Assembly (NCBI GenBank): GCA_015232315.1
Contig: JADFZZ010000001.1
Coordinates: 208,835 to 272,834 of the forward strand
DNA: 64,000 bases
From: SAR324 cluster bacterium
Lineage (GTDB): Bacteria; SAR324; NAC60-12
Reading direction: 5' to 3'
Below are positions 6,705-27,421 of the stretch, piece after piece; the first letter of the stretch is position 1, and every line of letters begins with the position of its first letter. The position numbers and the translations under genes are program-made. The notes under the pieces are model-generated. The model was not told the DNA's origin. It did not search any database and worked only from the letters and a program-made list of their open reading frames with translations.

Positions 6705-8312
6705 ATGAAACTGAGAAAAACCAATATCGAACGCTTGAAAAATGAGTCCTTTGATGTGCTGATCATTGGCGGCGGAATCAATGGTGCTGTCTCCGCGGCA
6801 TCTCTGTCTGGCAAAGGCGCAAAAGTCGCGCTGATTGACCGTGTTGATTTTGCCGGATTCACCAGCATGCAGTCCTCAAATCTGGCATGGGGTGGCATCA
6901 AATATCTGGAAACGTATGAATTCGGACTGGTTCGCAAACTCTGCATGTCACGGAACCATTTGATGCGCAGTTATCCCTCCACAGTCCAGGAAATCCGGTT
7001 TTTTACGACACTGGCCAAAGGCTTCCGATACCCTCCATGGTTTCTGTTCTGCGGAACACTGTTCTATTGGCTCATGGGGAATTTTTTCACCAAACCACCA
7101 CGCTATCTGACACCTTCCATCATTAATAAAGAAGAACCTGTGGTCAACACGGACAACAGCAATGGCGGAATGGAATATTCAGACGCGTACCTGCATGACA
7201 ATGATGCCCGGTTTGTATTTAACTTCATTCGAGGTGCCTTGAATTATGGCTGTGCCGCGGCCAATTATGTGGAGTCACTGGGAGCATCACAGAATCAGGG
7301 TTTATGGAAAACAAAAGTGCGTGACACGGTTTCCGGAGAAGAATTCACCATCACTTCCAAAGCGTTGATCAATTGCTGTGGTCCCTTTGTGGATGAACAC
7401 AACCAGATCACCGGTCAGAAAACAGAACATCACCATGCGTTTTCCAAAGGCATCCATCTGATCGTAGATCGTATTACTCCCAACAAAAGAGTACTGACTT
7501 TCTTTGCGGATGACGGACGACTGTTCTTTGTAATCCCGATGGGCCCCAAAACATCGATTGGGACAACCGACACCAAAGTACAATCTCCAAATACCGAAGT
7601 GACTGCGGAAGATCGGAAATTTGTGCTGGATAATATCAACAAACGCCTCAAACTGGAAAAGCCGATCACGGAATCCGATGTGATCGCTGAACGTTGCGGA
7701 GTCCGTCCGCTGGTGGTGTCTGGTAATACTTCAGGAAATCAGGACTGGTTTCAGCTTTCCCGCAAACACGTTGTCGAAGCCAACGTCAAGGATCGTCACA
7801 TCAGTATCTTTGGCGGAAAACTGACTGATTGTCTGAATGTGGGCGAAGAGGTTTTTCATGAAGTTCGAAAATTTGGCGTGGAATTTCCGTTCCCCGATAA
7901 AAAATGGTATGGTGAGCCACCTGATGCGGTGAAAGAAGAATTTTTTCATCAGGCCAGACTGATGAATCTGGATGCGAGGACCCCGGCGACCTCTTCCGAA
8001 AAACTCACATCCAGATTATGGAGACGTTATGGTGCTCATGCACTCGGGATGTTGGAAAGTATCCGACGTGAACCTGAAATGGCAGAACTGCTGATTGAAA
8101 ATTCGGAATATCTGCGGTGTGAAGTCGAAGAAGCCGCGCAACGGGAGATGATCACCAAACTGGATGATTTTCTCCGACGTCGTTCAAAAATCACTCAGGT
8201 CGTTCCTCATGACGTCGTGCGTGATTCCGCAGGCTTGAAAGACGCTTGTGTCATATTTTTCGGTGATCAGGCTGAAGAACGTTACCAGGAATATTTCAGG
8301 GAACATCAGTGA
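6705..8312 (+). CDS. FAD-dependent glycerol-3-phosphate dehydrogenase-like oxidoreductase (GlpD/GlpA family)
   Basis: N-terminal FAD fold DVLIIGGGINGAVSAASL followed by AGFTSMQSSNLAWGGIKYLE. Confidence 0.7.
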   Translation: MKLRKTNIERLKNESFDVLIIGGGINGAVSAASLSGKGAKVALIDRVDFAGFTSMQSSNLAWGGIKYLETYEFGLVRKLCMSRNHLMRSYPSTVQEIRFFTTLAKGFRYPPWFLFCGTLFYWLMGNFFTKPPRYLTPSIINKEEPVVNTDNSNGGMEYSDAYLHDNDARFVFNFIRGALNYGCAAANYVESLGASQNQGLWKTKVRDTVSGEEFTITSKALINCCGPFVDEHNQITGQKTEHHHAFSKGIHLIVDRITPNKRVLTFFADDGRLFFVIPMGPKTSIGTTDTKVQSPNTEVTAEDRKFVLDNINKRLKLEKPITESDVIAERCGVRPLVVSGNTSGNQDWFQLSRKHVVEANVKDRHISIFGGKLTDCLNVGEEVFHEVRKFGVEFPFPDKKWYGEPPDAVKEEFFHQARLMNLDARTPATSSEKLTSRLWRRYGAHALGMLESIRREPEMAELLIENSEYLRCEVEEAAQREMITKLDDFLRRRSKITQVVPHDVVRDSAGLKDACVIFFGDQAEERYQEYFREHQ

Positions 8313-12666: not shown

Positions 12667-13411
12667 TCCTCACTTCTTCATATTCTTCGTCATCTTCATC
12701 TTCATCGTCATCGTCATACTCTTCATACTCTTCATATTCGTCTTCGTCTTCATAGTCATTCTCGTCGTCCTCATCAGGACCATTTGAGTTTGACTGATTT
12801 TCCAGCGTGAAGTGCAAAGCCATTTCAAAAGCCGCTCTTGTAAACTCAAGGACTTTGGCGAAGCCTTCATCCGACAGCTTTCGGGCCTCATCCCGACTGC
12901 GGAAAATATTAATAAATTCACGTTCGCGCTCAAAATGATGTGGAATACGCCCTACCCCCCAATCCTGCAAAATCCGCCAGGCTTCCGGATTGTAGGTGCG
13001 TACTGATCTCAGAATAAACGGGACCGGATCATGGCGTGCCAACAGTGCGGCCAGACGCAGGGTTAATTCAAACGAAAGCGTGGCTGTTCCATTTTCTACC
13101 GCATCCAGCAATGTCTGGTCAGAAAGATCAAGAGCATCATTCAGATCATTGATGGTCATTCCGGCCACCTGCCGCAAGTCACGCAACGAAGCGCCCATTT
13201 CCTGCAGGGCGAGAGATCTGTCAGCACCGGGGATCAATGCTTTACCGACTCTGATGGATTTTTCTCCTGTTTTTGCGACAGCCTTGAACGCCGCATTGGT
13301 CATTCCTGCCATCATTCGAATCAGCGAACGTTCCTCTTTAGGATACATTCGGATCACATCATCAGAAACTGCCTGAGGTAATTCAGCAGAAACGGGTTTA
13401 TTTCTGGCCAT
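12656..13411 (-). CDS. XRE-family helix-turn-helix protein with poly-acidic (D/E/Y-rich) C-terminal tail
   Basis: GMTINDLNDALDLSDQTLLDAVENGTATLSFELTLRLAALL fits the XRE HTH pattern. Last 45 aa are about 85% Asp/Glu/Tyr. Stop overlaps the downstream Hsp70-like start by 11 nt. Confidence 0.55.
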   Translation of the reverse strand: MARNKPVSAELPQAVSDDVIRMYPKEERSLIRMMAGMTNAAFKAVAKTGEKSIRVGKALIPGADRSLALQEMGASLRDLRQVAGMTINDLNDALDLSDQTLLDAVENGTATLSFELTLRLAALLARHDPVPFILRSVRTYNPEAWRILQDWGVGRIPHHFEREREFINIFRSRDEARKLSDEGFAKVLEFTRAAFEMALHFTLENQSNSNGPDEDDENDYEDEDEYEEYEEYDDDDEDEDDEEYEEVRNGK

Positions 13412-13457: not shown

Positions 13458-14759
13458 CTATGCCTCATAGAAATTCAGATCATTTTCAACTTCATGTAAG
13501 AGGTCCTTCACCATTTTATCACCAAATTCCAGTTGAATTTGCAACAATTTCTGGACCCGTTTCAGATTTTCCAGAATCCATGGTCGAGGTAACTGAATAT
13601 TCAGGAGATGAACAGAAGTTTGAATGAAATATCGCAGAACACTGGCATATTCGAGCAGAATAGTGAGTTCGTGCCCTTTCTTCTTCAGAGAGCGCTTGCT
13701 ACTGCCGGTACGTCTCAGGGCAAGGCCATAAAAGTGATAGGTTTTTTTAAACAATTCCTGAATATCTTTTCTGATTTCCTTCCCGATTGCACCCGCACGA
13801 AAGCGATTGACCATGTAGGTCATCTCACTCATATAAACTCTGGCCTTCAAAAAATAGCCCAAAGAATTATCCTTGTCATGAAGCACAAATTTATCAGTGA
13901 TGTCAACCGCATAAGTTTGTAGCAACAGATGAAATCTTAAAAAATGGATGATGGCATAGGCTTTGACATATAAATGTTGTTTGAGTTCAGGCTTTGACTG
14001 ATCGCTGTTGAGTTGCCGTTCAATGTCATTGATATCAAACATTTCGGTGAACATATATTTGGAAAGCTCAGTCGCTTTAGCCGCATGGGTCATGTATTCC
14101 TGAATCACACGGATGTTTCTGTTGATCACGGCTTTCAACCGTTCCAGTGTTTTGATTTGCTCTTCTGTTCCTGTGGCTTTTTTTGCCAGAAGAATTTTGT
14201 TTTCTATTGTTCGGACATCATGCCTGCATTTAGCCTGAAGTTGGTTCAAATAGGTATTCTGTGCCCATAAAGCCACCTGAATTCCGGGAATACTGAACAC
14301 ACCAAAGGTATTTGCCACAGTCGATTGCAGTAACATGGTTCGATACACTTCCACAGGAAGTTCACGCCCTGTCTGGCCCAATAACGTGACAAGAGCAATA
14401 CGCGCCTGATAATCCATAGGATCCGTTTTCAAACGTTCCACCAGGTCTGTGGCAGTTTTGGTTGGATGATGCTGTGCCAGATCTTCTCCAGTAACCCCTT
14501 CCCAGTATAGTTTGCCGAACTTGCCACCGAGCATGGCTTTTGCCCTCATGATGAAGGTTGCGTTTTTTGCTTTCAATATTTCATCATGCCTTTTTTTAAT
14601 ATCCCCTTCCCAGTGAGTCACCAGTCCCGGAATGTTACCAATATTCTTGGCAATAATCTTGAGATGCGTCAGTCCCTCTTTAGGGTCTGAGCTTTCCCAA
14701 TCCTTGCCGAAAATATCTTCATTGATAATTTGTCCTTCTTCCTTTTTCTTCTCAGCCAT
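13458..14759 (-). CDS. hypothetical protein (433 aa), first gene of the Hsp70-like operon
   Basis: Long ORF with ATG start, same strand, 46-bp gap to the next gene; no recognisable motif. Confidence 0.45.
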   Translation of the reverse strand: MAEKKKEEGQIINEDIFGKDWESSDPKEGLTHLKIIAKNIGNIPGLVTHWEGDIKKRHDEILKAKNATFIMRAKAMLGGKFGKLYWEGVTGEDLAQHHPTKTATDLVERLKTDPMDYQARIALVTLLGQTGRELPVEVYRTMLLQSTVANTFGVFSIPGIQVALWAQNTYLNQLQAKCRHDVRTIENKILLAKKATGTEEQIKTLERLKAVINRNIRVIQEYMTHAAKATELSKYMFTEMFDINDIERQLNSDQSKPELKQHLYVKAYAIIHFLRFHLLLQTYAVDITDKFVLHDKDNSLGYFLKARVYMSEMTYMVNRFRAGAIGKEIRKDIQELFKKTYHFYGLALRRTGSSKRSLKKKGHELTILLEYASVLRYFIQTSVHLLNIQLPRPWILENLKRVQKLLQIQLEFGDKMVKDLLHEVENDLNFYEA

Positions 14760-15002
14760 TCATCCATTATGGAAATTAGGGACAATTAAAGGGTTCCAGC
14801 CCCCCAATAAATTTTAGGCACACTAAAATAAATCAATAAAAACTTCAAACATTACTATACATGCCACGGTTTTATCAAAAAAATCGAGTGCAACTCCACG
14901 GCACAGACAAAAAAAATAAATAAACCATTTGACCTCTTTGAAATGAAATTGCTATGAAGAATTGAACCAATTATTCCATAATCATTCATTACAAGGAGCA
15001 AT

Positions 15003-15569
15003 ATGACACAAAAAATAAAAAAAATAATGACCGTCACCCTGATGTTTTTATTCATGGCTCAGACCGGAGCCTCCTTATATGCTCAAGAAACGCCCCCCGC
15101 ACAAAATGCGGAAACAGACGCCGCGGCGGTAAAAAAAATCAATCGCGATGATCTGATCAAATACAGAAATTATGTCATGACCATCAAAGGCAATCACACC
15201 CAGGCCTTGAGGTTGCTTGTCGCTAAAAAAATCAATATGAGAAATCAGTTTATTGCCCATGCGGAAGCCTTGAGTGCCTTGTCCTTTGAAATGTTGCGAC
15301 TGTTTCTTCCGGGAAGCATGGGACCAAAATCACGAGCCAAAGCGGAAATCTGGGACAAAGATGGACGGTTGAGCAAAAAATTCGTGGAACAAACTCAAAT
15401 CATGGAAAAAGAAGCACGCCAATTGGTGGATGTCTCACGCTATGGCGATCTGGATGCTATCAAAAAACAACTTCGTTCCTTTGAAAAAAATGGTTGCAAA
15501 GGCTGTCACTCTGAATTCCGTGGTGAAGGAACACCGGATCCGATCGCGTCGTATGAAGATGAGGAATAA
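15003..15569 (+). CDS. cytochrome c' (class II cytochrome c) family protein, secreted
   Basis: AAGGAG RBS, signal peptide, four-helix-bundle length, C-terminal haem motif CKGCH. Confidence 0.6.
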   Translation: MTQKIKKIMTVTLMFLFMAQTGASLYAQETPPAQNAETDAAAVKKINRDDLIKYRNYVMTIKGNHTQALRLLVAKKINMRNQFIAHAEALSALSFEMLRLFLPGSMGPKSRAKAEIWDKDGRLSKKFVEQTQIMEKEARQLVDVSRYGDLDAIKKQLRSFEKNGCKGCHSEFRGEGTPDPIASYEDEE

Positions 15570-15606
15570 TCCTTAAACCATTTAAAAATTTTTGAGGAGT
15601 AGGAAT

Positions 15607-16770
15607 ATGAATAAAGTATTAACCGGAGCAGGGATATTATTACTGCTTGTGCTGGGCTTTTATTTGATAAGTGGACTGTTTGAAAAACCAGATGAAGTGG
15701 TAACTCCAGTCACACAGACAGAACCGGAACAAGAGGAATTGACTCTTGAAGAGCCGACCATCACACCAGTCACTGTGGCGCCAAAAACAGAAACGCAACC
15801 CCAGGTTGTTGAGAAAACAGAAGAAGCTCAGGACAATCAGCAAATCCTAAAACAAGGTGATCAATTGATTCAGGCCAAACTTCAGGAGATTGCCACAGAT
15901 TATGCGCATAACCTGAAATTTCCGCCATATGCCACACCTTTGAATGAAAATAGTTATGAGTATTTGAATCCAAACGCGTTTATTCCTTTCAGACTTAAGA
16001 TGCCAACCGGTGAGCCATTCTCATACGAGATCATATTGCCATCATCTGTATTATTTAAAGGCATTCCTATTGAAGGGACTTTCCGCATCTATGGAGATCA
16101 ATCTGAACCGCTTCCCCAGGTTCTGGATGTCAAGGCTGAAATTCTCAACAGACAAAAGGTTTTGGCTTCAACACAAATGACGATGACTCAAAATGATGAG
16201 ATGGAAAAACACTTCAGCTTTACGATTGAATCCCCAATCGAGGAAAGCAAAGATTGGCCTGCGGAACTTCAGATCAAAGCGGTTTTTCTGCTGAGTGGTT
16301 ATGGAGAACAAAGTTATATCCTGCCCTTCCGTCTTGAAGAATCAGTGGCAAAAGTGGATGGTCTCGGACAAGAAACTGTTGATGGCCCTAACTTGCTCAT
16401 TCCTGTCAATATTACAGTAAATAATTCAGGGACATACCGTGTAAGCGCTAATTTGTATTCCCAAACGACTGGGAGTCCTCTTGTACATATACAGGGACAA
16501 CAAAAAATTGAAGGAACATCAGGCACAGTTATATTGAAAGCGCATGTTTCCGCACTGAAGGAACGACAGGATACAGGGCCTTATGTCGCAAAAACTTTTC
16601 TGGTTGCTCGTCATTCCGAGAGTGGTGGCGCCGATCAGTCAGGGAATGCCGGGAATGCCGAATTTGTCATTCCTGGACATGATTTTAATGAGTATAAAGA
16701 TGAACCTTATGTTGATATGGGGGAACAGGAGAAACTGAAAAGATTTAATCAAATTATTCAGAATTGGTAA
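15607..16770 (+). CDS. hypothetical N-terminally membrane-anchored periplasmic protein
   Basis: GAGGAG RBS before ATG 15607; single N-terminal TM (ILLLLVLGFYLISG); Pro/Thr/Glu-rich linker then a large globular region. Confidence 0.5.
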   Translation: MNKVLTGAGILLLLVLGFYLISGLFEKPDEVVTPVTQTEPEQEELTLEEPTITPVTVAPKTETQPQVVEKTEEAQDNQQILKQGDQLIQAKLQEIATDYAHNLKFPPYATPLNENSYEYLNPNAFIPFRLKMPTGEPFSYEIILPSSVLFKGIPIEGTFRIYGDQSEPLPQVLDVKAEILNRQKVLASTQMTMTQNDEMEKHFSFTIESPIEESKDWPAELQIKAVFLLSGYGEQSYILPFRLEESVAKVDGLGQETVDGPNLLIPVNITVNNSGTYRVSANLYSQTTGSPLVHIQGQQKIEGTSGTVILKAHVSALKERQDTGPYVAKTFLVARHSESGGADQSGNAGNAEFVIPGHDFNEYKDEPYVDMGEQEKLKRFNQIIQNW

Positions 16771-16782
16771 TTTTAAAAAATG

Positions 16783-16813
16783 GTTGGTTGTCTTGGAAAC
16801 GACAACCAACCTT
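16783..16813 (+). terminator. hairpin downstream of 15607..16770
   Basis: ggttggttgtc-ttggaaac-gacaaccaacc stem-loop followed by a T-rich tract. Confidence 0.4.
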
Positions 16814-17151
16814 CCTTCCTTATCCCACATGCCTGTTTTTCTACATAACATGATCAAGAAAAATGATTGTAATTTGAGGACAACTTACGACATTCCCCTC
16901 TTGGAATGATTTAAGATTATTAAAATAAAATATTTCATAAGATCATTAGCTAACAATATGATATTATTTAAAAATATAAAATCTACTCGACTGGCGTTTT
17001 CTGAAGAAATTTTTGTGGAATGGGAATTTAACGACCTCGACGTTGCACTAATTGGAGAATGTAATACGCTTTAATCAAAATATTATTTTACTTACAGATG
17101 GTTTTTGGGGATCATCTGAATTTAATAACAATCATTTGTGGGGAGGGCCCA

Positions 17152-18957
17152 ATGAAAAAAGTCATAAAAAAAATAATGATATCCTGTTTGGCATTAGGCG
17201 TAATGACCGCATGCCAACCAACCCAGGAAGAGAATCAATTGAATGTTAGCGCTGATAATCAGCAGGGACAGTCTCTCAGTTTTGATAAGTCAATCAGTGT
17301 AGCAGATTCCAGTGAGCGATTGTCTGTCAATCCAGACCTGATTTTTGTGGAAGGATTCAGCAATGGTTTTATGAATACCAACAGTTTTTATACATTAATG
17401 TCTCCCTTGAACAGTATGCTAGGACTCTTTGGAACCAGTGTTGAGGAAATTGTGAGTTCTGTTGCTGGAATCGATTTATCCAGTCAGCCAGGTTATGCGA
17501 AGTGGTATTTCTCAAAATATGCTGACGCATTCCTGGCCCAAGGAAAGGTCAATAAAGTGGGTTATCTCCATTGGGATACGGGTTATAGAATTTTAAGAGA
17601 TGGATTAATAAGCCAAATGGAGGATAACTATAATGGAGCTGGGGCGCCTGGATTACACACCCGGATTCAGCGCATGATGAATGGGACTTATACGGCAAAT
17701 GATGTGAAAAATTTTGATGCATATTGTCCTGGAGCAACTGAAACAGTTACAGAATTTGGCATATCAAATGTTAAAAAATGTAACAATGCCGCCTATAAAC
17801 TTTGTGCTAATGGTTGTATTTTCATGACACACTCCACAGGAGGTCTGGTTTTCGATCGGTTAGTTTATGAAGCTAATCAGGAGAAGCTATATCCGGGAAC
17901 CTACCCTAAACTGGCAGGTGTGTGGGATAAAACCACCATGGCCATTGAAATTTCTTCAGCCGGTGGAGGAACCGAGTTTTCGAACACAGTCATCAACCTA
18001 GTGGTTACTATGTGTAGTGGCGGCACCCAAACGGATCAATTGGTTAACTTTCTTGTAGGAGCCTTGTTCCCGGAATATTCTTGTGTGTCAGGAGGGTTAG
18101 AAACCAACAGCCAAAGGGCTGGTGCAGGTAGAGACTTGATGCCTGCGATTGCTCGTGATGCGACTAATGGAACAAAAGCCAGCTTTGGACGAACACCAAT
18201 TCTTCATATTGCGGGAAATGGAAACATGATGCCAGATGTGGGGATTTTGAGACTGGATTGGATTATTTCTAACAGTTATGGCGGTGCAGGCTATGGAGAT
18301 GGATTGGTTCCTTTAGCTTCTACCTGTGGTGCTAATACGGCAACACCTATCAAGAGTTGTCATCCTAAAGTGAGCCCTACTGGTACAATTGGAACCTATA
18401 GCGCTCCTGCTGGATTGTATACAAACCATCATCCCTTTATCATGACTGGAGAAGGCCATTTGAGCGAAATGAACGCAATTTTCGAAGCTTTGGGTGTGGA
18501 TGATAGTAACTGGGGAACTTATGTGAATCCAATCAACTATGTAGAAGTAGCTTTGAAATCCGGTAATTTGGAGCAAAAAATGGAACAGAGTTTCAGCAAT
18601 AGTGTAGTAGAAGTTCTGGTTCCGCCTCAAGGCTGGGGAAATCCAGAGGTAATGAGAACACAATGTTGGTATGAAACCGGATACGCTGGTGCGGATACAG
18701 CACTGCATACAAATTTGGATACATCCAGTAATTATGGCGGCATGTCCAATCAGGTTGATGACATCACCTGGAGAGGAACCAATACTCGCTATGATTTTTG
18801 GGATTGTGGTGGAAATAAAACGGATTGGTATTATTCCATTACCCAAATGAGCCTTGAAGGGGATGGCGACAGAATGTTCCACCTGTTGAGTAAAAAACTG
18901 GACGCTCGCATGCAACGGGGTGATACGGGACAACAAAACAATATGCAGGTTCAATAA
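17152..18957 (+). CDS. secreted lipoprotein, lipase/esterase-like alpha/beta hydrolase candidate (paralogue A)
   Basis: GGGAGGG RBS; lipobox LALGVMTAC; nucleophile-elbow-like FMTHSTGGLV; acid motif DGLVPLAS; Cys-rich C-terminal half; about 75% identical to 19414..21231. Confidence 0.55.
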   Translation: MKKVIKKIMISCLALGVMTACQPTQEENQLNVSADNQQGQSLSFDKSISVADSSERLSVNPDLIFVEGFSNGFMNTNSFYTLMSPLNSMLGLFGTSVEEIVSSVAGIDLSSQPGYAKWYFSKYADAFLAQGKVNKVGYLHWDTGYRILRDGLISQMEDNYNGAGAPGLHTRIQRMMNGTYTANDVKNFDAYCPGATETVTEFGISNVKKCNNAAYKLCANGCIFMTHSTGGLVFDRLVYEANQEKLYPGTYPKLAGVWDKTTMAIEISSAGGGTEFSNTVINLVVTMCSGGTQTDQLVNFLVGALFPEYSCVSGGLETNSQRAGAGRDLMPAIARDATNGTKASFGRTPILHIAGNGNMMPDVGILRLDWIISNSYGGAGYGDGLVPLASTCGANTATPIKSCHPKVSPTGTIGTYSAPAGLYTNHHPFIMTGEGHLSEMNAIFEALGVDDSNWGTYVNPINYVEVALKSGNLEQKMEQSFSNSVVEVLVPPQGWGNPEVMRTQCWYETGYAGADTALHTNLDTSSNYGGMSNQVDDITWRGTNTRYDFWDCGGNKTDWYYSITQMSLEGDGDRMFHLLSKKLDARMQRGDTGQQNNMQVQ

Positions 18958-18990
18958 ATGAATCAATCAGGCCATTGAGTTCGAATGCGG

Positions 18991-19027
18991 TTTCTGATCA
19001 TAGTATTAGAAACCGCTTTTTGTTTTA
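18991..19027 (+). terminator. Rho-independent terminator after lipoprotein A
   Basis: gcggtttct...agaaaccgc stem followed by TTTTT. Confidence 0.55.
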
Positions 19028-19413
19028 AAGGAATGGCTCATCAATAACATTCCCAACTATAAATAGTCTTCTCCATAGCTGTGCTTTGGCTGGTTGGAGG
19101 CAAATGGGTAAGTTATTTCTGTGCGATTCCAAAGTGGGTTCCATTAGGACTTTTTACGACACAACTTTCTCCAATTGTCAGATTGGATGAAATCTGGAAC
19201 ACTTAACACTGCACCATAATACACTGATATATATCAAAAAATATTAAAATAAATTGAGAGGGAATTGTTAAAGTGTTTGGTGTAAATATTTTCACGACAA
19301 TCAGGTTGCACAAATAGCAATTAAACACTAATTAATAATTAAAAGATTATTTTTCTTACGAAAGACGGTTATGGGGATCGTCTATAAATCCAAATTTTTC
19401 TCTGGAGGGCACA

Positions 19414-21231
19414 ATGAGAGTAATAATCAAAAAAATCATTATAGCAGGTATTGCCTTGGGATTCATGACCGCATGCCAACCACCTCAGGAGCAGGAACAG
19501 CTCAATGTCGCAGATGTTCCTCAACAGGATCAGACAATCAACTTTGACAAAGCTCTGACTTCAGAAGATTCCTCACTTCGTTTGGCTGATTCAGTCAAAC
19601 CTGATATTATCTTTGTAGAAGGGTTTAGTAACGGGTTCATGAACACCGATAGTTTTTACACATTAATGTCGCCATTAAACAGTATGCTTGGACTGTTTGG
19701 AACCAGTGTTCAGGGATTATTAAGTTCTGTTTCTGGAATTGACACATCCAGTCAACCGGCTTATGCAAAATGGTACTTTTCAAAGTATGCCACTGCTTTT
19801 GAAGCTCAGGGCAAAGTCAGTAAAGTGGGTTATTTGCATTGGGATACCGGGCACCGAATTCTGAGAAGTGGTCCACAAACAAGTCAAATGGAAGATAACT
19901 ATGATGGTAAGGGTAATCCAGGACTGCATACCCGTATTAAACGTATGATGAATGGTACTTACACCGCAAATGATGTGAAAAATTTTGATGCGTATTGTCC
20001 GGGTGCGACAGAGACTGTTTCAGAGTTTGGATTAAGCAATGTCAAGAAATGTAATAATCCGGCTTATGCATTGTGTACCAATGGCTGTATGTTCATGACA
20101 CACTCTACTGGTGGACTTGTTTTTGACAGATTGATTTATGAAGCCAATCAGGAAAAACTAGTCGCTGGTTCCTACCCTAAATTGGCTGGTGTCTGGGATA
20201 AGACAACAATGGCCGTTGAAGTTTCTTCAGCAACTGGCGGAACAGAGTTTGCCAATACCGTCATTAATCTTGTTGTTGCCGCATGTAATGGTCCAAGTCA
20301 AACGGATAAACTCGTGATGTTTTTGGTACAGGCACTGTTCCCACAATATGAATGTAATCAGGCAGGACTGACTTATAATGAAATGAAGGCTGGTGCTGGT
20401 TCAGACTTAGTACCAACTGTAGCTCGAGCGGCAAATACAGGTTCTCAATCAAGTTTTGGACGAACCCCGATTCTGCATATTGCTGGAAATGGAAACATGA
20501 TGCCTAACGTCGGCATTCTGCGACTTGACTGGATTATCGCCAATAGTTACGGCGGTGCTGGCTATGGTGATGGTTTGGTGCCTTTAGCATCAACATGTGG
20601 AGCCAACTCAGCAACACCTATTAAAAGTTGTCATCCCAAAGTAAGTCCTACAGGATCTGTTGGTAGCTATAGTGCTCCCGCTGGATTGTTCACGAATCAT
20701 CATCCCTTTGTCATGACAGGGGAAGGTCACTTGAGTGAAATGAACGCGATTTTTGAAGCATTGGGCGTAGATGACAGCAACTGGGGAACCTATGTAAATC
20801 CAATCAACTATCTAGAAGTAGCTTTGAAATCAGGAAATCTGGAAGAGCGGATGGAGAAAAGCTTCAGCAATAGTGTCGTAGAGGTTTTGGTTCCTCCACA
20901 AGGTTGGGGTAATCCTGGACAGGTACGTGATCAGTGCGAACTGGATAGCGGATATGCCGGAGCGGATTCTGCATTAGCAACCAACTTGGACAGCGTGAGC
21001 GATTTTGGTGGAATGTCCAACCAAATGGATGGTTTTACATGGAACCGTGGTGCTGATGTCGGTAATTGTGGAGCGTTTGGATGGTGGGATAAGTATCGAT
21101 ATACTTATACCGTTACCAGTATGAGTTTGGAAGGTTCTGGTGACAGAATGTTCCATCTGTTGAGCAAAAAACTGGATACACGAATGCAACGTGGTGATAC
21201 AGGACAACAAAATAACATGATCGTCCAGTAA
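19414..21231 (+). CDS. secreted lipoprotein, lipase/esterase-like alpha/beta hydrolase candidate (paralogue B)
   Basis: GGAGGG RBS; lipobox IALGFMTAC; same FMTHSTGGLV and DGLVPLAS motifs. The upstream leader (tggggatcRtct) is also duplicated. Confidence 0.55.
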   Translation: MRVIIKKIIIAGIALGFMTACQPPQEQEQLNVADVPQQDQTINFDKALTSEDSSLRLADSVKPDIIFVEGFSNGFMNTDSFYTLMSPLNSMLGLFGTSVQGLLSSVSGIDTSSQPAYAKWYFSKYATAFEAQGKVSKVGYLHWDTGHRILRSGPQTSQMEDNYDGKGNPGLHTRIKRMMNGTYTANDVKNFDAYCPGATETVSEFGLSNVKKCNNPAYALCTNGCMFMTHSTGGLVFDRLIYEANQEKLVAGSYPKLAGVWDKTTMAVEVSSATGGTEFANTVINLVVAACNGPSQTDKLVMFLVQALFPQYECNQAGLTYNEMKAGAGSDLVPTVARAANTGSQSSFGRTPILHIAGNGNMMPNVGILRLDWIIANSYGGAGYGDGLVPLASTCGANSATPIKSCHPKVSPTGSVGSYSAPAGLFTNHHPFVMTGEGHLSEMNAIFEALGVDDSNWGTYVNPINYLEVALKSGNLEERMEKSFSNSVVEVLVPPQGWGNPGQVRDQCELDSGYAGADSALATNLDSVSDFGGMSNQMDGFTWNRGADVGNCGAFGWWDKYRYTYTVTSMSLEGSGDRMFHLLSKKLDTRMQRGDTGQQNNMIVQ

Positions 21232-21257
21232 GTTTTCGATCAATTTCTGATTCTACA

Positions 21258-21296
21258 TGATTTTTGAAGCGGCAATTTCCTGAGTTTGGAAGTTGC
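21258..21296 (+). terminator. Rho-independent terminator after lipoprotein B
   Basis: agcggcaa...ttgccgct stem followed by TTTTT. Confidence 0.55.
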
Positions 21297-21484
21297 CGCT
21301 TTTTGTTTATGCACTATTAGGGGTTGGTCACATTTTCGACAGTATGTCAGAAAACAGTCTTTGATTTATCACCTGGTTTGGGTTTTGTTCCGTAGGGGCA
21401 GACCTGTCTGCCCGGATCAGGGCGAACACACAGGTTCGCCCCTACAATTTGTGGCCGAAAATATGATCCACCCCTACGTATATT

Positions 21485-21565
21485 CCATAATCCTGACTTT
21501 ATGAGGATTCATTCTGATTCTGTCTTTCCTCCATGCCCATCCTGATTTTTTCTGGTCTATGTTTT
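21485..21565. repeat. family-3 repeat (aatcctgactttatgaggattcat...catcctgattttttctgg)
   Basis: Second copy at 23962..24048; partial copy at 22745..22775. Confidence 0.55.
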
Positions 21566-21570
21566 CTAAT

Positions 21571-21763
21571 CTGAAAAAAACTCTTGTTAAGGAACATTCG
21601 AAAAATAACTTGGGACCTTTCAAATTCCGGTTGACAGTTTGTCATCTCGACGAAGGAGAGATCCGGTTCGCCACGCTTGAAGATCCCTCGTCGCTCGTAC
21701 CTCGCTCTGTCGGGATGACACAGGCAAACTGTAAAGTACTTTTTGACTGATTTTGAAAGGTGC
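21571..21763. repeat. family-2 composite palindromic repeat (core acagtttgtcatctcgacgaaggagagatc...ctgtcgggatgacacaggcaaactgt)
   Basis: Inverted copy at 48471..48650. Its first 45 bp (ctgaaaaaaactct...aaaaataactt) recur at 22852..22897. Confidence 0.6.
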
Positions 21764-21831
21764 CCGGCATGACACAAAAACACAGTTTCGCGACAGCGAC
21801 TAAATAAGGATGTTGCTGTCAAACAAGTAAC

Positions 21832-22074
21832 TCATTCTCTCTCCCACTCTTCACGCATCTCCAGAATTTTCTCATCAATTTTGTCGAAGTGAGTGACTCC
21901 ATAGAATTTTTCTGGATCAAACTGTTTTGAAACAGTTTGAGATGGTTGGTTTTCTTCAACCGGTAATACTACTAATTCAACCTTTGAATAGTGAAAATCT
22001 TTAGGAATGTTTATAATTCCTCTCAAATTTTCCAAATCAATTATTTCCCTTAATGCAATCATCTTAATCTCCAA
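21832..22074 (-). CDS. orphan antitoxin-like small protein (AbrB/VapB-like beta-barrel?)
   Basis: 80 aa with ...KVELVVLPVEE... pattern typical of small antitoxins. No cognate toxin follows; repeats occupy that position. TTG start at 22074 or ATG at 22062. Confidence 0.3.
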   Translation of the reverse strand: MEIKMIALREIIDLENLRGIINIPKDFHYSKVELVVLPVEENQPSQTVSKQFDPEKFYGVTHFDKIDEKILEMREEWERE

Positions 22075-22099
22075 TTCTCTGGTTTTCCTATATATACAT

Positions 22100-22238
22100 G
22101 CGAATCCGGTGTTATAATTTATTCATTAATATCAGCTTCGTTCAGTGTCATCTCGACTTCAGGAGAGATCTTTCAACGCTCAAGGCCTTAAGATTTCTCC
22201 TATCGTCGAAATGGCACAGACTTAACTCCGGATCCACA
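22100..22238. repeat. family-1 palindromic repeat copy B
   Basis: About 90% identical over about 139 bp to 40..180. Confidence 0.6.
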
Positions 22239-22642
22239 TATATCTGTGTGAAAGTAATACTCTATCCATTATTCACAGCAAACAAGGTAAAACCAATGCA
22301 TGAACAGATTTCTGGTTTCAAATCTCCAAAGCGTTACTCCCAGATTAACGCCGTCAATTTTCTTCAGCCTCTTCCCTGTGAATTTGAATTTTCCAGTGGA
22401 AATCCTGATTGAGAGCTTTGAAATCAGGAAGATTGAAGCGGCTGAATGACTTGCTTTACCGTGTTAATATCGACCAGTCTTCCTTCATTGTATTTGTGGA
22501 TAATGCTGGTAATCAGAAAATTTAGGTTGACCTGCAACAGTCAACAAAATGAAATTACCAGTGTCTGGGTAAAAACCAATTTTAGAAGTAAAAAATTTCA
22601 TAAATTTAGAGGATTAGCTAAATTTGAAGTAAGGCGGAAGTA

Positions 22643-22768
22643 CTCAAAACATGAATGCGCTATTGGCGAAACGGTGACCATGGCCGGCGCTGGCATGGAT
22701 GGAATTTGCAGAAAATTAATCATTCCCTATTTTGTCTTTAACCCCATAAGAGTCCATCACAATCCTGA
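22643..22768. repeat. 126-bp direct repeat, left copy, bracketing the BrnTA cassette
   Basis: Differs at two positions from 23855..23980. Confidence 0.65.
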
Positions 22769-22818
22769 TTTTATGAGCACCTTTCAGAGAAAATTGATTA
22801 AAAGATTGCTTAACATAT

Positions 22819-23145
22819 GGCTAATGATACATATAACCCAAGTTGTGACCGATCTGAAAAAAACTCTCGTTGAGGAACTTTCGAAAAATAACTTCCATAA
22901 CTTTTCAAAAAATCATTTCCTGCCGGGCATGCGTAGAGATGCGCGATTCGCAGGTCTCTACAGACCTGGGCAAGGGCTGTGTGTTAAAAAACTTTGGGCA
23001 GTTATTCTTTTGTCGTTCCTAAGGGCATTTCACCCAGATTTTGTGTCATCCCCAATGAATATGCGGAATCTTGACCACGATTTGAGCAGTGATTTCTCCC
23101 TTTGGTCAATATGGCACCGTAGGTCACAACTTGGGTTACATATAT
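22819..23145. mobile_element. MITE-like non-autonomous element with 17-20-bp terminal inverted repeats
   Basis: Left end acatataacccaagttgtgacc; right end ggtcacaacttgggttacatatat (reverse complement). No ORF inside. Carries the hairpin cgtagagatgcgcgattcgcaggtctctacag. Confidence 0.45.
22918..22972. repeat. GC-rich hairpin repeat (family 6)
   Basis: tgccgggcatgcgtagagatgcgcgattcgcaggtctctacagacctg; second copy at 45139..45190. Confidence 0.5.
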
Positions 23146-23175
23146 AAATATGGTTAATTATCAGGATGATGCAAA

Positions 23176-23457
23176 GTGGAATTTGAATGGGATGAGGATA
23201 ACAATAAAATCAACAAGGAAAAGCATGGCATCTCATTTTACGATGCTCAATATGCTTTTGCAGATCCCAATCGTATAGTTGCAAAAGATCTCAAACATAG
23301 CCAAATTGAGAAACGATTTTATTGTTTTGGAAAGGTAAAAGAAGAAATTGTAACAGTCAGATTCACTTACCGAGATCATAAAATAAGGATTATTGGCGCA
23401 GGATATTGGCGAAAAGGGAGAAGTACTTATGAACAGCAAAATAAAATACGTGGATGA
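23176..23457 (+). CDS. brnT: BrnT-family (DUF497) ribonuclease toxin
   Basis: GTG start; MEFEWDEDNNKINKEKHGISFYDAQYAF...RIIGA matches the BrnT pattern. Confidence 0.75.
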   Translation: MEFEWDEDNNKINKEKHGISFYDAQYAFADPNRIVAKDLKHSQIEKRFYCFGKVKEEIVTVRFTYRDHKIRIIGAGYWRKGRSTYEQQNKIRG

Positions 23458-23674
23458 ACCAATGGAGTTTGAGGTTGTTGAGGATTTTCTGCCACCCCCT
23501 GTCGATCTTGTGTTTAAGGAAGAGACGATAAAAGTGACAATCAACCTCAACAAATCCAGTGTAAAATTCTTCAAAAAAAAAGCACAGGAAGTTGGGATTC
23601 CTTATCAAAAAATGATTCGTAAAATAGTAGATTTATATGCGAATCGATACAGTGATACGGGAAGCTCTCATTAA
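23429..23674 (+). CDS. brnA: BrnA-family antitoxin
   Basis: 81 aa, overlaps brnT by 29 nt; C-terminal KKAQEVGIPYQKMIRKIVDLYA ribbon-helix-helix-like region. Confidence 0.65.
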   Translation: MNSKIKYVDEPMEFEVVEDFLPPPVDLVFKEETIKVTINLNKSSVKFFKKKAQEVGIPYQKMIRKIVDLYANRYSDTGSSH

Positions 23675-23854
23675 AACTTTAGGAGTGATAATGGCAATGT
23701 CGGAGTCAGTTTGATGTGCGGATGTTTAAGGCTATCAACGAAAGCCGATACACTTTGTAAATTCAATGAATTAGAGAACCCCTGCAAGGTCAGACGGGAC
23801 GTACGATTTTGACTAAAATTTTACGACCATCTGTATCGGGTTAACCTGGTAGCC

Positions 23855-23980
23855 CTCAAAACATGAATGCGCTATTGGCGAAACGGTGACCATGGCCGGC
23901 GCTGGAATGGATGGAATTTGCAGAAAATTAATCATTCCCTATTTTGTCTTTAACCCCATAAGTGTCCATCACAATCCTGA
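23855..23980. repeat. 126-bp direct repeat, right copy, bracketing the BrnTA cassette
   Basis: See 22643..22768; continues into a family-3 repeat at 23962..24048. Confidence 0.65.
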
Positions 23981-24101
23981 CTTTATGAGGATTCATCAGA
24001 ATCCTGTCTTTCCTTCATGCCCATCCTGATTTTTTCTGGCCTATTTTTTCAAAGTCGATAGTTCTATAAAAAACATCCACAATCATCTGAATGGAGTCGC
24101 T

Positions 24102-24566
24102 ATGGGATTGAGTGTTGAAGATAAAAAAGAAGTGGAGGACTTTGTCAAAAACGTCATGCAGTTGAACCAACTGGATGTGCAGGACCTTCAACAGCAATGG
24201 CGAAAATTCAAGGAAGCTCCTGAAGCCAGTTTGGCGGCACTTGAAGTTCAGACATCAGAACTTGGCCGGGAAATTCGGGAATTCAAGCAGGATGTATCAA
24301 AACGTTTTGAGCAGGTGGATAAACGTTTTGAGCAGGTGGATAAACGTTTTGAACAGGTGGATAGACGTTTTGAGCAGGTAGATAAACGTTTTGAGCAGGT
24401 GGATAAACGTTTTGAGCAGGTGCGTCAGCAGTTGGATGATGTCAACAAAACCATGATGCGGCTCCATGAAAGCATGAATGCCCAGGTCTGGAAATTTCTT
24501 GGCGGATTAGGGGTCATTCTCATTTTGTTACGACTGTCCGGCGCAATTTTTCCTAATCTGCCATAA
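24102..24566 (+). CDS. C-terminally membrane-anchored coiled-coil protein with six KRFEQVD heptad repeats (DUF1640-like)
   Basis: GGAG RBS; heptad array KRFEQVDKRFEQVD...; C-terminal TM FLGGLGVILILLRLSGAIF. Confidence 0.6.
   Translation: MGLSVEDKKEVEDFVKNVMQLNQLDVQDLQQQWRKFKEAPEASLAALEVQTSELGREIREFKQDVSKRFEQVDKRFEQVDKRFEQVDRRFEQVDKRFEQVDKRFEQVRQQLDDVNKTMMRLHESMNAQVWKFLGGLGVILILLRLSGAIFPNLP
24300..24425 (+). repeat. 6 x 21-bp near-perfect in-frame tandem repeat (aaacgttttgagcaggtggat)
   Basis: Units at 24300, 24321, 24342, 24363, 24384 and 24405, with 0-3 mismatches each. Confidence 0.85.
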
Positions 24567-24652
24567 GATGACTCTGCATTGAAACGCACCTGTGCTAGTG
24601 AAATATTGTCATTCCATTCATTGTAATCACACAAACAGCGAAGATATCAGAC

Positions 24653-27421
24653 ATGGATTCTTTAACAAAATTCAAACGAAAAGGTTTCAGCGCTCAAGCG
24701 GCCACAACAGAAGACAACATTGGTTTTCAGATCAACTTTGATCAGACAGGAGCCTACCTGTCTGTCATCAACTCGCAGGGAAAAGAGGTCGATCCGGATT
24801 ATCGAAGTTACAGCGGAATCACCCGGGACATACTTCGTCTGATAGCGGATATTCAACTGAGGCAGGAATTTCAGATTGATTGGGATTCTGACAATTCACG
24901 AGTCTATCTGGCCTCTCATGAATCCCTGATTATGAAACTGCGTCTTCATCCCAAAGTTCTCACCGATTCCGGACAATTGATCAGTTTTTCAAGCCATGCC
25001 GCCAAATTGCTTATGGCTGTTGAGGAGAATGCCAAAAAAAAGCTCAGTGGAAAATTGCGACTGCTTCTTGGCGAGGGGGAATCTCCTGAGGTACGCTTTT
25101 TGACAGATTCTCTGGTTCTTTCGGGCACCACTGTTTATGAAATTCCATCCGCGGGAGAACGGTTTGCTGATCTTGCGATGTTTGAATCTGCGTTTCAGGC
25201 CAATGAACTGGAAAATTTTCTGTCCCTGTTTTATTCCCACTTTGCAGACATTCCGATTCGTTATCAGGATTACCAGTGTGTAGAAGGTCCCACCCGTCTG
25301 GCTCAGGCCGCTCTCGTGTTTGAGAAAATAGACCATGAACAAAATCTCTATCTGCGAGTCAGTACGACCGTGGAAGGTCTGGATGCCGATTTCTTTGAGG
25401 AGTATGAAATCAATCGGTTGGTGACACTCAATGAAATGGAACGTGTGATTCAAATATGTCCCCTGGTCGAGGAAAGCTCAGTGGATGCCTTGCGCGAAAT
25501 CAACAGTCTGTTGAACAAGCGAAAGCGCCAACTGAAGACAGACAATGCGGATTTTTACCTGGAAGAGAATCTGTTCATCATTCAGAAAACACTGGCTCAG
25601 GAATTTATCTATCTGGATTTGCCCAATCTCATTGGTCGCTACTCACTGCTCGGTTCTGAAAAACTGAAAGATTACAAGGTACGTGCGGTCACGCCTCGTT
25701 TGAGTCTGGCATTGGCACATGGCATTGATTTTCTGGAAGGCGAGGCCACCCTCGAGATTGAAGGGCAGAGCTTTTCCTTGTTTGAGGCCATCAGCCTTTA
25801 TCGAAAAAAATCCTATATTCCGTTGACCGACGGCACCCATGCCCTGATCAACCAGGGGTATATCGAAAAGCTGGAACGTCTGTTTAAAAAACAGCAGGAT
25901 CAGGTCAAAGTTTCATTCTTTGATCTTCCCGCGATTGAAGAATTGATTGATGAAAAAGCGGCTCAGGCAACCTTTCCACAATCCCGTGAAATTTTCAGGG
26001 GATTCAATGAATTGAAGGATCAAAAAATCAAACTGCCAACCGTCAAGGCTACCTTGCGCCCCTATCAGCAACAAGGGTACAAGTGGCTTGAATATTTGCG
26101 AAAAAACAATCTGGGAGGATGTCTTGCGGATGATATGGGTCTGGGAAAAACAATCCAGACTCTGACCATGCTGGCTGGCGTGTATCCCAAAGAAAAAATG
26201 CCCTCCTTGCTGGTAATGCCTAAAAGTCTGCTGTTCAACTGGCAAAAGGAAATCGAAAAATTTACGCCGAATATCACGTGTTATGTGTTTTATGGCAATG
26301 ATCGGGATATGGCCAAAGCCAAAGAGCACAATCTGATTCTCACCACCTATGCCATGCTACGCAATCAAATTGAACAGTTTTGCGAGGAACAGTTTTATTA
26401 TGTAGTTCTCGATGAATCACAGAATATCAAAAACATTCAGTCCCAGATTTCCAAGGCTGTTCTGCTGTTGAAGGCTCAACACCGTCTGGCCCTGAGCGGT
26501 ACTCCTGTTGAAAATAATTTGGGTGAACTGTATTCCCTGTTTCGGTTTCTCAATCCTGCCATGTTCAATTCCGCTGATGAATTCAACCGGTATTACATTG
26601 CTCCGATTCAGCAAAACAATGATAAACAGGCGATTCATGAGCTTAAAACAAAAATTTATCCCTTTATTTTAAGACGTCTCAAAAAAGATGTGCTCAAAGA
26701 ACTTCCGGACAAGATTGAGCAGGTGTTGTATGTGGATATGTCTGACGAACAAAAACGGCTGTATCACCAACGGCGTGTGTTTTATCAGGATTCGCTGAAA
26801 CAACAGATCGCGGTGAACGGAATCAACAAATCACAATTTTTTATCTTCCAGGCACTGACCGAATTGCGTCAGATCGCATCCATTCCTGAAGCCCAAAGTG
26901 ATGGAGCGATTGTCTCCCCCAAACGGGAATTGTTGCTGGAACAAATCATGGAATCCACCGCCAACCGACACAAGGTGCTCGTTTTCGGCAATTTCCTTTC
27001 AATCCTCGAGCATGTCGGCGAAGATCTTCAGCAGGCCGGAATCCAGTATCTGGTCATGACTGGAGCAACCCAGGACAGAGGTGCTCTGGTGGAACGGTTT
27101 CAGAATGATCCCGACTGCCAGGTTTTTCTCATGACTCTCAAAACCGGCGGTTTGGGGTTGAATCTCACGAAAGCGGATACCATCTTCATTTTTGATCCCT
27201 GGTGGAATCTGGCCGCTGAAAATCAGGCCATAGACCGCAGTCATCGCATTGGACAGGATAAAACAGTGTTCAGCTACAAACTCATCACCCGTGGTTCCAT
27301 CGAAGAAAAAATCCTTCAACTTCAGGAAAAGAAACGGGAACTGTTTGAAAACATCATTTCCAGTGACAGTGCGTCTATTAAATCATTGAATGAAGAAGAT
27401 ATTAATTTCATTCTCAGTTAA
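24653..27421 (+). CDS. SNF2-family (Swi2/Snf2) ATPase with an N-terminal domain of about 450 aa of unassigned function
   Basis: LRPYQQQGYKWL, DDMGLGKT (Walker A), VVLDESQNIKN (DExx), LALSGTPVENNLGELYSLFRFL, and helicase-C motifs towards the C-terminus. Confidence 0.85.
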   Translation: MDSLTKFKRKGFSAQAATTEDNIGFQINFDQTGAYLSVINSQGKEVDPDYRSYSGITRDILRLIADIQLRQEFQIDWDSDNSRVYLASHESLIMKLRLHPKVLTDSGQLISFSSHAAKLLMAVEENAKKKLSGKLRLLLGEGESPEVRFLTDSLVLSGTTVYEIPSAGERFADLAMFESAFQANELENFLSLFYSHFADIPIRYQDYQCVEGPTRLAQAALVFEKIDHEQNLYLRVSTTVEGLDADFFEEYEINRLVTLNEMERVIQICPLVEESSVDALREINSLLNKRKRQLKTDNADFYLEENLFIIQKTLAQEFIYLDLPNLIGRYSLLGSEKLKDYKVRAVTPRLSLALAHGIDFLEGEATLEIEGQSFSLFEAISLYRKKSYIPLTDGTHALINQGYIEKLERLFKKQQDQVKVSFFDLPAIEELIDEKAAQATFPQSREIFRGFNELKDQKIKLPTVKATLRPYQQQGYKWLEYLRKNNLGGCLADDMGLGKTIQTLTMLAGVYPKEKMPSLLVMPKSLLFNWQKEIEKFTPNITCYVFYGNDRDMAKAKEHNLILTTYAMLRNQIEQFCEEQFYYVVLDESQNIKNIQSQISKAVLLLKAQHRLALSGTPVENNLGELYSLFRFLNPAMFNSADEFNRYYIAPIQQNNDKQAIHELKTKIYPFILRRLKKDVLKELPDKIEQVLYVDMSDEQKRLYHQRRVFYQDSLKQQIAVNGINKSQFFIFQALTELRQIASIPEAQSDGAIVSPKRELLLEQIMESTANRHKVLVFGNFLSILEHVGEDLQQAGIQYLVMTGATQDRGALVERFQNDPDCQVFLMTLKTGGLGLNLTKADTIFIFDPWWNLAAENQAIDRSHRIGQDKTVFSYKLITRGSIEEKILQLQEKKRELFENIISSDSASIKSLNEEDINFILS

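Follow-up and report, generated by a model that had tools for sequence, protein, structure and literature searches.

We analysed a 64,000-nucleotide stretch of a metagenome-assembled genome (MAG) of a SAR324 cluster bacterium (GCA_015232315.1, contig JADFZZ010000001.1; hereafter the window, whose positions are used throughout) that carries two tandem genes for predicted lipoproteins, HQM11_00925 and HQM11_00930 (copies 1 and 2), downstream of a gene for a membrane-anchored protein that we call the partner. The two copies are probably exported Ser-Asp-His alpha/beta hydrolases, likely lipases or phospholipases, with the partner as an obligatory membrane-tethered accessory. As far as the sequences tell, what is new here is a lipase-like family, so far uncharacterised, whose dedicated partner is of a new type.

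Coupling of hydrolase and partner genes

Hydrolase and partner are strictly coupled in genomes, up to and including gene fusion. When 1.84 billion representative proteins were searched exhaustively with HMMER (E ≤ 1e-3), only 35 relatives of the hydrolase came back. A scan of one genome per species, with a 16-sequence alignment as the query, found 275, and loci were taken for the best 80 of these. Almost all of the 80 belong to marine Gammaproteobacteria of many genera, among them Marinobacter, Bermanella, Arenicella, Glaciecola, Hahella, Oleispira, Thalassolituus and members of the Halomonadaceae; one more is from SAR324. We then looked for the partner with a six-frame hidden Markov model scan of 89 loci, about 80 of them from species genomes. 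It lies next to the hydrolase on the same strand, or is fused to it, in 86 of the 89; one contig (L005) is too short to judge, and the other two loci are considered below. The partner is mostly upstream of the hydrolase but downstream in Bermanella, Oleispira and some others. A word-indexed profile search found only five partners, and the six-frame scan was far more informative. No third conserved gene emerged, as all-against-all clustering of the neighbours gave lineage-specific synteny only. The sequence-only reading of this DNA had listed a membrane-anchored unknown beside the pair; the membrane-anchored protein of 392 residues is indeed there, but its pairing with the hydrolases had been missed.

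This coupling bears on a second scenario, in which the hydrolases act alone and the 392-residue protein belongs with the neighbouring cytochrome c' in a respiratory or nitric oxide-related membrane function, its place beside the hydrolases being incidental. Gene spacing speaks for it: the partner gene begins 22 to 37 nt from the cytochrome c' gene, while a hairpin and some 340 nt separate it from the hydrolases, and the order cytochrome c'-partner-hydrolase is kept in loci L001 and L002. Yet that order occurs only in the window and these two loci, none of the 80 genome loci has a cytochrome c' gene, and the conserved neighbours include no cytochrome c' cluster, whereas the partner family travels with the hydrolase. 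The fusions and the locus scan largely refute this scenario, which we regard as very improbable. Cytochrome c', correctly named as a neighbour by the sequence-only reading, was dropped as a part of the module, being conserved in the three closest loci only.

The partner family and its fusions to the hydrolase

The window partner has an N-terminal membrane anchor (residues 9 to 27), followed by a Pro-, Glu- and Thr-rich linker of about 65 residues and by beta-sandwich domains related to DUF4785/NttD. Similarly, 38 of 40 partners open with a hydrophobic 19-mer and continue with a polar linker of 37 to 80 residues; Pro, Glu, Gln, Thr, Ser, Ala, Asp or Lys make up 55 to 88% of the linkers. A profile of 40 partner sequences matched PDB entry 4KH9 (E 1.3e-6 over about 145 residues) and arrestin C-domains (E 1e-5 to 1e-4). 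The partners of L006 and L017 exceed the Pfam DUF4785_3rd cut-off (26.7 and 27.2 bits versus 24.5), while the window partner alone reaches no Pfam threshold; at the level of the family, the partner appears to be a distant DUF4785/NttD relative. Against the Lif family (PF03280, Lipase_chap), the window partner gave no match at E ≤ 1.

Two natural fusions, P0021 (688 aa) and P0026 (713 aa), have the hydrolase domain at the N terminus and partner homology at the C terminus. Their C-terminal halves match residues 93 to 391 of the window partner with E values of 7e-35 and 8e-41, respectively. Likewise, in the first loci with short-form hydrolases, the hydrolase gene is directly preceded by a homolog of the window partner (E 1e-26 and 1e-17). 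Directly upstream of the P0021 fusion, positions 1794-2621 of locus L003 encode a 275-residue protein with a signal peptide and the C-terminal sequence ...LGLAYRF; it looks like an outer-membrane beta-barrel and has no Pfam match.

Fusions speak for cooperation rather than antagonism, which argues against a toxin-immunity system, in which the hydrolases would be membrane-damaging phospholipases aimed at competitors or prey and the membrane-anchored partner a periplasmic immunity protein or inhibitor shielding the producer, as in the Tle-Tli pairs of type VI lipase effectors. A fused protein is hard to square with an inhibitor that should be absent from the target. Moreover, with a Sec signal or lipobox of their own, the hydrolases are not loaded on a type VI apparatus, PADLOC gave no match, and no type VI genes and no type VI or other toxin-delivery domain occur among the neighbours scanned (about 10 kb on each side). 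We consider a toxin-immunity role quite unlikely.

Predicted fold and proposed catalytic residues of the hydrolases

Both copies lack a significant match in Pfam, NCBIfam and PADLOC scans, and a single-sequence PDB search with the hydrolase found none either, in line with the sequence-only reading, which could not place the pair in a characterised lipase family. The relatives comprise a few long forms (575 to 664 aa) and a majority of shorter proteins, about 350 aa in length, whose signal peptide is of the ordinary kind and whose mature chain opens directly at the first strand (V-I-L-V-H-G-F). Large insertions and a 160-residue C-terminal extension are specific to the long forms. In an alignment of 48 sequences (numbered as in copy 1), S228, T229, G230, A270, G273, G324, D383, C392 and C403 are invariant, and H227, C218, C222, D328, L329, A334 and R335 nearly so; H436, within EGHLSEM, is aligned or one position off in almost all. 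The motifs FMTHSTGGLV (residues 224-233) and GDGLVPLAS (382-390), the latter containing the previously noted DGLVPLAS, occur in both copies; THSTGG spans residues 226-231 of copy 1 and 229-234 of copy 2.

A first full-length structure model, from a 16-sequence alignment, was unusable (predicted local distance difference test score, pLDDT, 46.6) and gave no conclusion on residues 445-601. A model of residues 55-450 built on the 48 sequences scored higher (pLDDT 82.9; predicted template modelling score, pTM, 0.86). It places S228 after strand 222-227 and before helix 230-246, the position of a nucleophile elbow; the residues two before and two after the serine are small (T226-H-S228-T-G230). H436 lies four residues past strand 426-432, and D383 is in the loop region after strand 350-355. 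Foldseek returned 43 PDB matches at E ≤ 1e-3; all are bacterial lipases, nearly all of family I. The modelled fold is that of an alpha/beta hydrolase, overall like solved members, and in the model the acid and the histidine follow the nucleophile in the expected order, on loops past later strands, and are conserved. The sequence-only reading had taken the serine of THSTGG for the nucleophile of an alpha/beta hydrolase, and both the predicted fold and the placement of this invariant serine support that. Because a profile of the Asp-His half of the domain found no lipase in the PDB, D383 and H436 are equated with known catalytic residues by fold topology and conservation, not by alignment to a solved enzyme. 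We regard the hydrolases as putative alpha/beta hydrolases with a lipase-like active site, outside every characterised family.

The mature protein has ten cysteines (192, 210, 218, 222, 288, 311, 392, 403, 505 and 552), and the two conserved pairs probably form disulfides. The earlier description of a Cys-rich C-terminal half was overstated, as six of the ten lie in the N-terminal half. The C-terminal extension (residues 445-601) found no match in a PDB sequence search. About 10 residues from its end is a motif of the form (M/Q/E)RGD(T/G/A)G (18916-18930 and 21190-21204; residues 589-593 and 593-597 of copies 1 and 2), which is also conserved in P0004 and P0016; overall, these long forms are only 35 to 50% identical.

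Export signals, duplication history and selection

The sequence-only reading had described a tandem pair of secreted lipoproteins, about 75% identical, in open reading frames (ORFs) of 619 and 605 residues. The ORFs are present, and the two proteins share 77% identity (456/594) over their full length. We place the start of copy 1 at the ATG at 17152, giving a 601-residue protein, because the Shine-Dalgarno sequence GGAGGG lies 5 nt upstream, the homologous stretch ahead of copy 2 is noncoding and the deposited HQM11_00925 agrees. Each copy opens with a basic n-region and a hydrophobic core; the lipoboxes read LGVMTAC and LGFMTAC, with Cys21 in each, as the earlier MTAC assignment had it, and the signal peptide that ends in V-M-T-A-C21 starts with MKKVIKK. 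Met at -3 is unusual, and the cysteine is conserved among long-form homologs (IVSC, MMAC, LSGC, IVAC and IISC). By these sequence features, both copies match a bacterial-lipoprotein signal peptide with a lipobox, consistent with secreted lipoproteins.

Between the copies, the nonsynonymous divergence (dN) is 0.16, the proportion of synonymous differences (pS) is 0.74, that is, synonymous sites are saturated, and dN/dS is below about 0.1. Both copies are under strong purifying selection, and dN reaches its minimum (0.04 to 0.08) in windows containing the catalytic motifs. Since synonymous sites are saturated while dN is only 0.16, the duplication is old and both copies are maintained. Locus L001, from a sister MAG, has the same tandem pair behind the same two upstream genes. 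Its second gene clusters with window copy 2 at at least 90% identity. Its first, P0002 (1869-3689), is nearer to copy 2 over residues 1-80 (67 to 92% identity versus 36 to 65% for copy 1) but 92 to 100% identical to copy 1 over residues 360-606, so that its last 250 residues are copy-1-like. This mosaic indicates that the paralogs exchange sequence, by recombination or gene conversion. Tandem or nearby duplication of the hydrolase also recurs in unrelated Gammaproteobacteria: in L012; in L018, L038 and L071, which repeat the window layout of one partner and two tandem hydrolases; and in the Arenicella-type loci L041 and L061, each with two divergently oriented partner-hydrolase pairs.

The pattern of selection matters for a further alternative, namely, that these are noncatalytic lipoproteins in which an alpha/beta-hydrolase scaffold has been reused for a binding or structural outer-membrane protein. 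The dipeptide after strand 1, normally HG, is EG in the window proteins (VEGF), and this His-to-Glu change in the oxyanion loop is common to the long forms, which alone bear the large insertions and the C-terminal extension. However, the serine and aspartate are invariant, both copies and all relatives keep the histidine, dN/dS falls to its minimum at the catalytic motifs, and the H of HG also varies (to R, S, N, Q or P) in other members that keep the triad. We consider loss of catalysis a highly unlikely explanation.

Proposed mechanism

We propose that the hydrolases form an uncharacterised family of active Ser-Asp-His enzymes, in the likeliest case lipases or phospholipases, with a fold closest to that of the bacterial family I true lipases. 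They would be exported by Sec and then lipidated at Cys21. The window enzymes have Gln at +2, which under the E. coli sorting rule would direct them to the outer membrane. The partner would be held at the inner membrane by its N-terminal helix, with a disordered linker and with its beta-sandwich domains in the periplasm, and the 65-residue linker could let the tethered domain reach enzymes at the outer membrane. It would bind the hydrolases as an obligatory accessory subunit, a single partner serving both paralogs, and most likely act as a folding, activating or holding factor before or during outer-membrane delivery. Its role may be analogous to that of the Lif foldase, or it may be a trans-acting version of the essential beta-sandwich domain of PlaB. 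What the data show is the fold, the motifs with their conservation, the purifying selection and the genomic pairing or fusion with the partner; catalytic activity, a lipid substrate, physical interaction and a chaperone-like role are what we infer from them. The pair could also consist of a real serine hydrolase and a real partner with a nonlipolytic function, the substrate being another ester, a thioester or a polymer, such as polyhydroxyalkanoate, a wax ester, a polyester, an acylated protein or a component of the cell envelope; we judge this unlikely, if less so than a toxin-immunity system.

Several observations weigh against the proposed mechanism or parts of it. The template modelling (TM) scores of the Foldseek matches are low, about 0.37, which we attribute to the large insertions that the hydrolases carry, and the EG dipeptide departs from the usual HG. 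In L010 (SAR324 MAG PL25a_bin.125) and L080, a short-form hydrolase has no partner detectable within the flank of about 5 kb on either side. In the window, partner and hydrolases appear to be transcribed separately: the hairpin and some 340 nt part them, and there is a leader for each hydrolase. In Marinobacter nauticus, both the hydrolase (WP_121206641.1) and the partner (WP_121206640.1) are 'hypothetical protein' in RefSeq. As the partner is all-beta and not homologous to Lif, a foldase role is argued from analogous architecture only, and the fusions suggest a permanent stoichiometric subunit or a pro-domain rather than a recycling, multi-turnover chaperone.

Tentatively, the partner family might even be a second class of dedicated, membrane-tethered steric chaperones or activators of exported lipases, one that evolved independently and is built on DUF4785/arrestin-like beta-sandwiches in place of the helical Lif scaffold, a possibility that we hold doubtful. 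In that case, PlaB-like THSTG hydrolases would have DUF4785 proteins as accessory subunits, the Legionella type II substrate NttD among them, and the module, with 275 relatives in species-representative genomes, would be a lipolytic system that has been overlooked in marine bacteria degrading hydrocarbons and lipids and in SAR324. DUF4785/NttD-like proteins have a solved structure (4KH9) and an orphan function, for which we offer the hypothesis of dedicated hydrolase partners. The exported lipase-like family has no Pfam family, and all its members carry a 'hypothetical' annotation, also in culturable, genetically tractable genera such as Marinobacter; the partner family is likewise annotated 'hypothetical protein'. 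If the partner is required for folding or activity, co-expression would be needed to obtain active enzyme, as for Lif-dependent industrial lipases. For SAR324, an abundant and poorly understood deep-ocean lineage, the module points to lipid hydrolysis at the cell surface.

Transcription layout and neighborhood

The coordinates of the gene pair and its surroundings are given in Table 1. The cytochrome c' and partner genes are probably co-transcribed, and the hairpin after the partner gene probably marks the end of their transcript. With separate transcripts and its own leader and terminator for each hydrolase, the partner:enzyme stoichiometry could be regulated independently.

The regions upstream of the two hydrolases align over about 160 nt (16959-17117 versus 19225-19383) with a local score of 50, against 22 ± 2.8 (maximum, 37) in 500 shuffles, and the GGAGGG site is common to both; a duplicated leader, as the sequence-only reading had it, is well supported. 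So is a Rho-independent terminator for each copy, as hairpins at 18987-19016 and 21266-21302 are each followed by a T-tract. Within the leaders, hairpins with a G-rich loop lie about 35 to 55 nt before the start codons (17095-17118 and 19363-19383), and their 3' arm is the element tggggatcRtct. In the 5' arm, a Y stands opposite the R and pairs with it (CAGATG...CATCTG versus AGACG...CGTCT), a compensatory change. The hairpin is found in all four genes of the two SAR324 MAGs, window and sister (about 1812-1836 and 3991-4011 in L001) and not in L002. A riboswitch was considered and rejected, as the leader has no Rfam match and the folding energy of the hairpin is unexceptional (z -1.6 to +0.6).

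TABLE 1 Features of the hydrolase-partner region, by window position
Feature	Position	Strand	Description
Cytochrome c' gene	15003..15569	+	188 aa; signal peptide; C-terminal CKGCH haem site; PF01322, E 2.8e-19
Partner gene	15592..16770	+	392 aa (TTG start); deposited as 387 aa (ATG at 15607)
GC-rich perfect hairpin	16782..16811		Right after partner gene; terminator-like site, scored on minus strand
Duplicated leader, copy 1	16959..17147	+	Blocks ACGAC..TTGCAC..ATTATTTT.CTTAC; hairpin; GGAGGG 17142-17147
ORF of copy 1 as first called	17098..18957	+	619 aa
Hydrolase copy 1, HQM11_00925	17152..18957	+	601 aa
Cys21 codon, copy 1	17212-17214	+	Lipobox cysteine
Proposed triad, copy 1	S228 17833-17835; D383 18298-18300; H436 18457-18459	+	From conservation and fold topology
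Intrinsic terminator, copy 1	18987..19026	+	12-bp stem (18987-19016), then TTTTTGTTTT
Duplicated leader, copy 2	19225..19409	+	Hairpin 19363-19383; GGAGGG 19404-19409
Hydrolase copy 2, HQM11_00930	19414..21231	+	605 aa
Proposed triad, copy 2	S231 20104-20106; D386 20569-20571; H439 20728-20730	+	Proposed Ser-Asp-His residues
Intrinsic terminator, copy 2	21266..21312	+	15-bp stem (21266-21302), then T-rich tail

The neighbors scanned within about 10 kb encode cytochrome c', an Hsp70-like protein, a helix-turn-helix (HTH) protein, Ham1, LytB, BrnT/BrnA and an SNF2 helicase. On the minus strand, 9799-13411 holds a 955-residue Hsp70-like protein (DUF3731 'DnaK-related' C-terminal domain, E 1.1e-60) and then a 251-residue HTH_31 protein; 13458-14759 encodes a 433-residue protein with no family match. 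A glycerol-3-phosphate dehydrogenase-like gene (DAO and DAO_C; 6705-8312) lies about 9 kb upstream of the hydrolases and may be unrelated to them. Just past the second terminator, 21392-21445 is a GC-rich imperfect palindrome of 54 nt (GTAGGGGCAGACCTGT...ACAGGTTCGCCCCTAC) that has a single copy in the window and does not represent a tRNA. The repeat-rich stretch reported downstream was recovered as direct repeats in 21471-24053, of 153 nt (22636/23848, 93% identical), 99 nt (21471/23955, 83%) and 43 nt (21569/22852, 93%). These enclose genes for a BrnT toxin (23176-23457; PF04365, E 4.7e-23) and, overlapping it, a CopG-like antitoxin (23393-23674). Rfam gave no match over the whole window, and no tRNA was found in 14000-25000.

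Comparison with known systems

Unlike the enzymes of type VI Tle4-Tli4 pairs, the hydrolases bear their own signal peptides, and enzyme-partner fusions exist. The putative serine esterase families DUF7379 and DUF676 are matched weakly by the relatives, around the nucleophile elbow, with scores all below the gathering thresholds (14 to 24.5 bits versus 33, and 12.8 to 18.5 versus 20.3, respectively); the window hydrolases matched neither in the Pfam scan. The structure behind 4KH9 is that of Legionella NttD (lpg0956), a soluble, type II-secreted, mainly beta protein of three domains and orphan function (PMC5904407, PMC6617341), whereas the partners described here are membrane anchored and paired with a hydrolase.

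The working resemblance is to the family I.1 and I.2 lipases (LipA-LipH/Lif and Acinetobacter LipA-LipB), which also have an adjacent gene for a membrane-anchored accessory protein, as in the 86 loci here. Membrane-anchored dedicated chaperones exist for secreted lipases, namely, LipH/Lif, and Lif is the membrane-bound steric chaperone of families I.1 and I.2 (PMC7046727, PMC13381987); other type II secretion substrates also have dedicated membrane chaperones (PMC4713064). However, Lif is alpha-helical, whereas the partner is all-beta and DUF4785- and arrestin-like. The hydrolases show no sequence homology to family I lipases in Pfam or PDB searches, and their elbow reads THSTG rather than GHSQG. 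Natural fusions of enzyme and accessory further set them apart from the family I/Lif systems, and the window enzymes are predicted lipoproteins, in contrast to the free exoproteins of families I.1 and I.2.

The nucleophile motif THSTGG is shared with Legionella pneumophila PlaB, in which THSTG, the defining motif of lipolytic family XVIII, contains the catalytic Ser85 (bioRxiv 10.1101/2020.09.01.246603; PMC6622161). PlaB (6zth) is also the best PDB sequence match of the hydrolase family profile, with HG and THSTGG aligned, at a nonsignificant E of 0.38. Work on PlaB by Bender and colleagues in 2009 reportedly described the motifs GSDGVV and SHS, which we took as a lead and not as a test. PlaB, an enzyme under the control of NAD(H)-dependent tetramerisation, has neither a signal peptide nor conserved disulfide cysteines, whereas the window hydrolases have a signal peptide and lipobox. 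The bilobed beta-sandwich of PlaB is fused at its C terminus; in the window, the beta-sandwich protein has a gene of its own and is related to DUF4785/NttD. Overall, the module appears to resemble a lipase with its foldase in layout and PlaB in its active-site motif, while belonging to neither.

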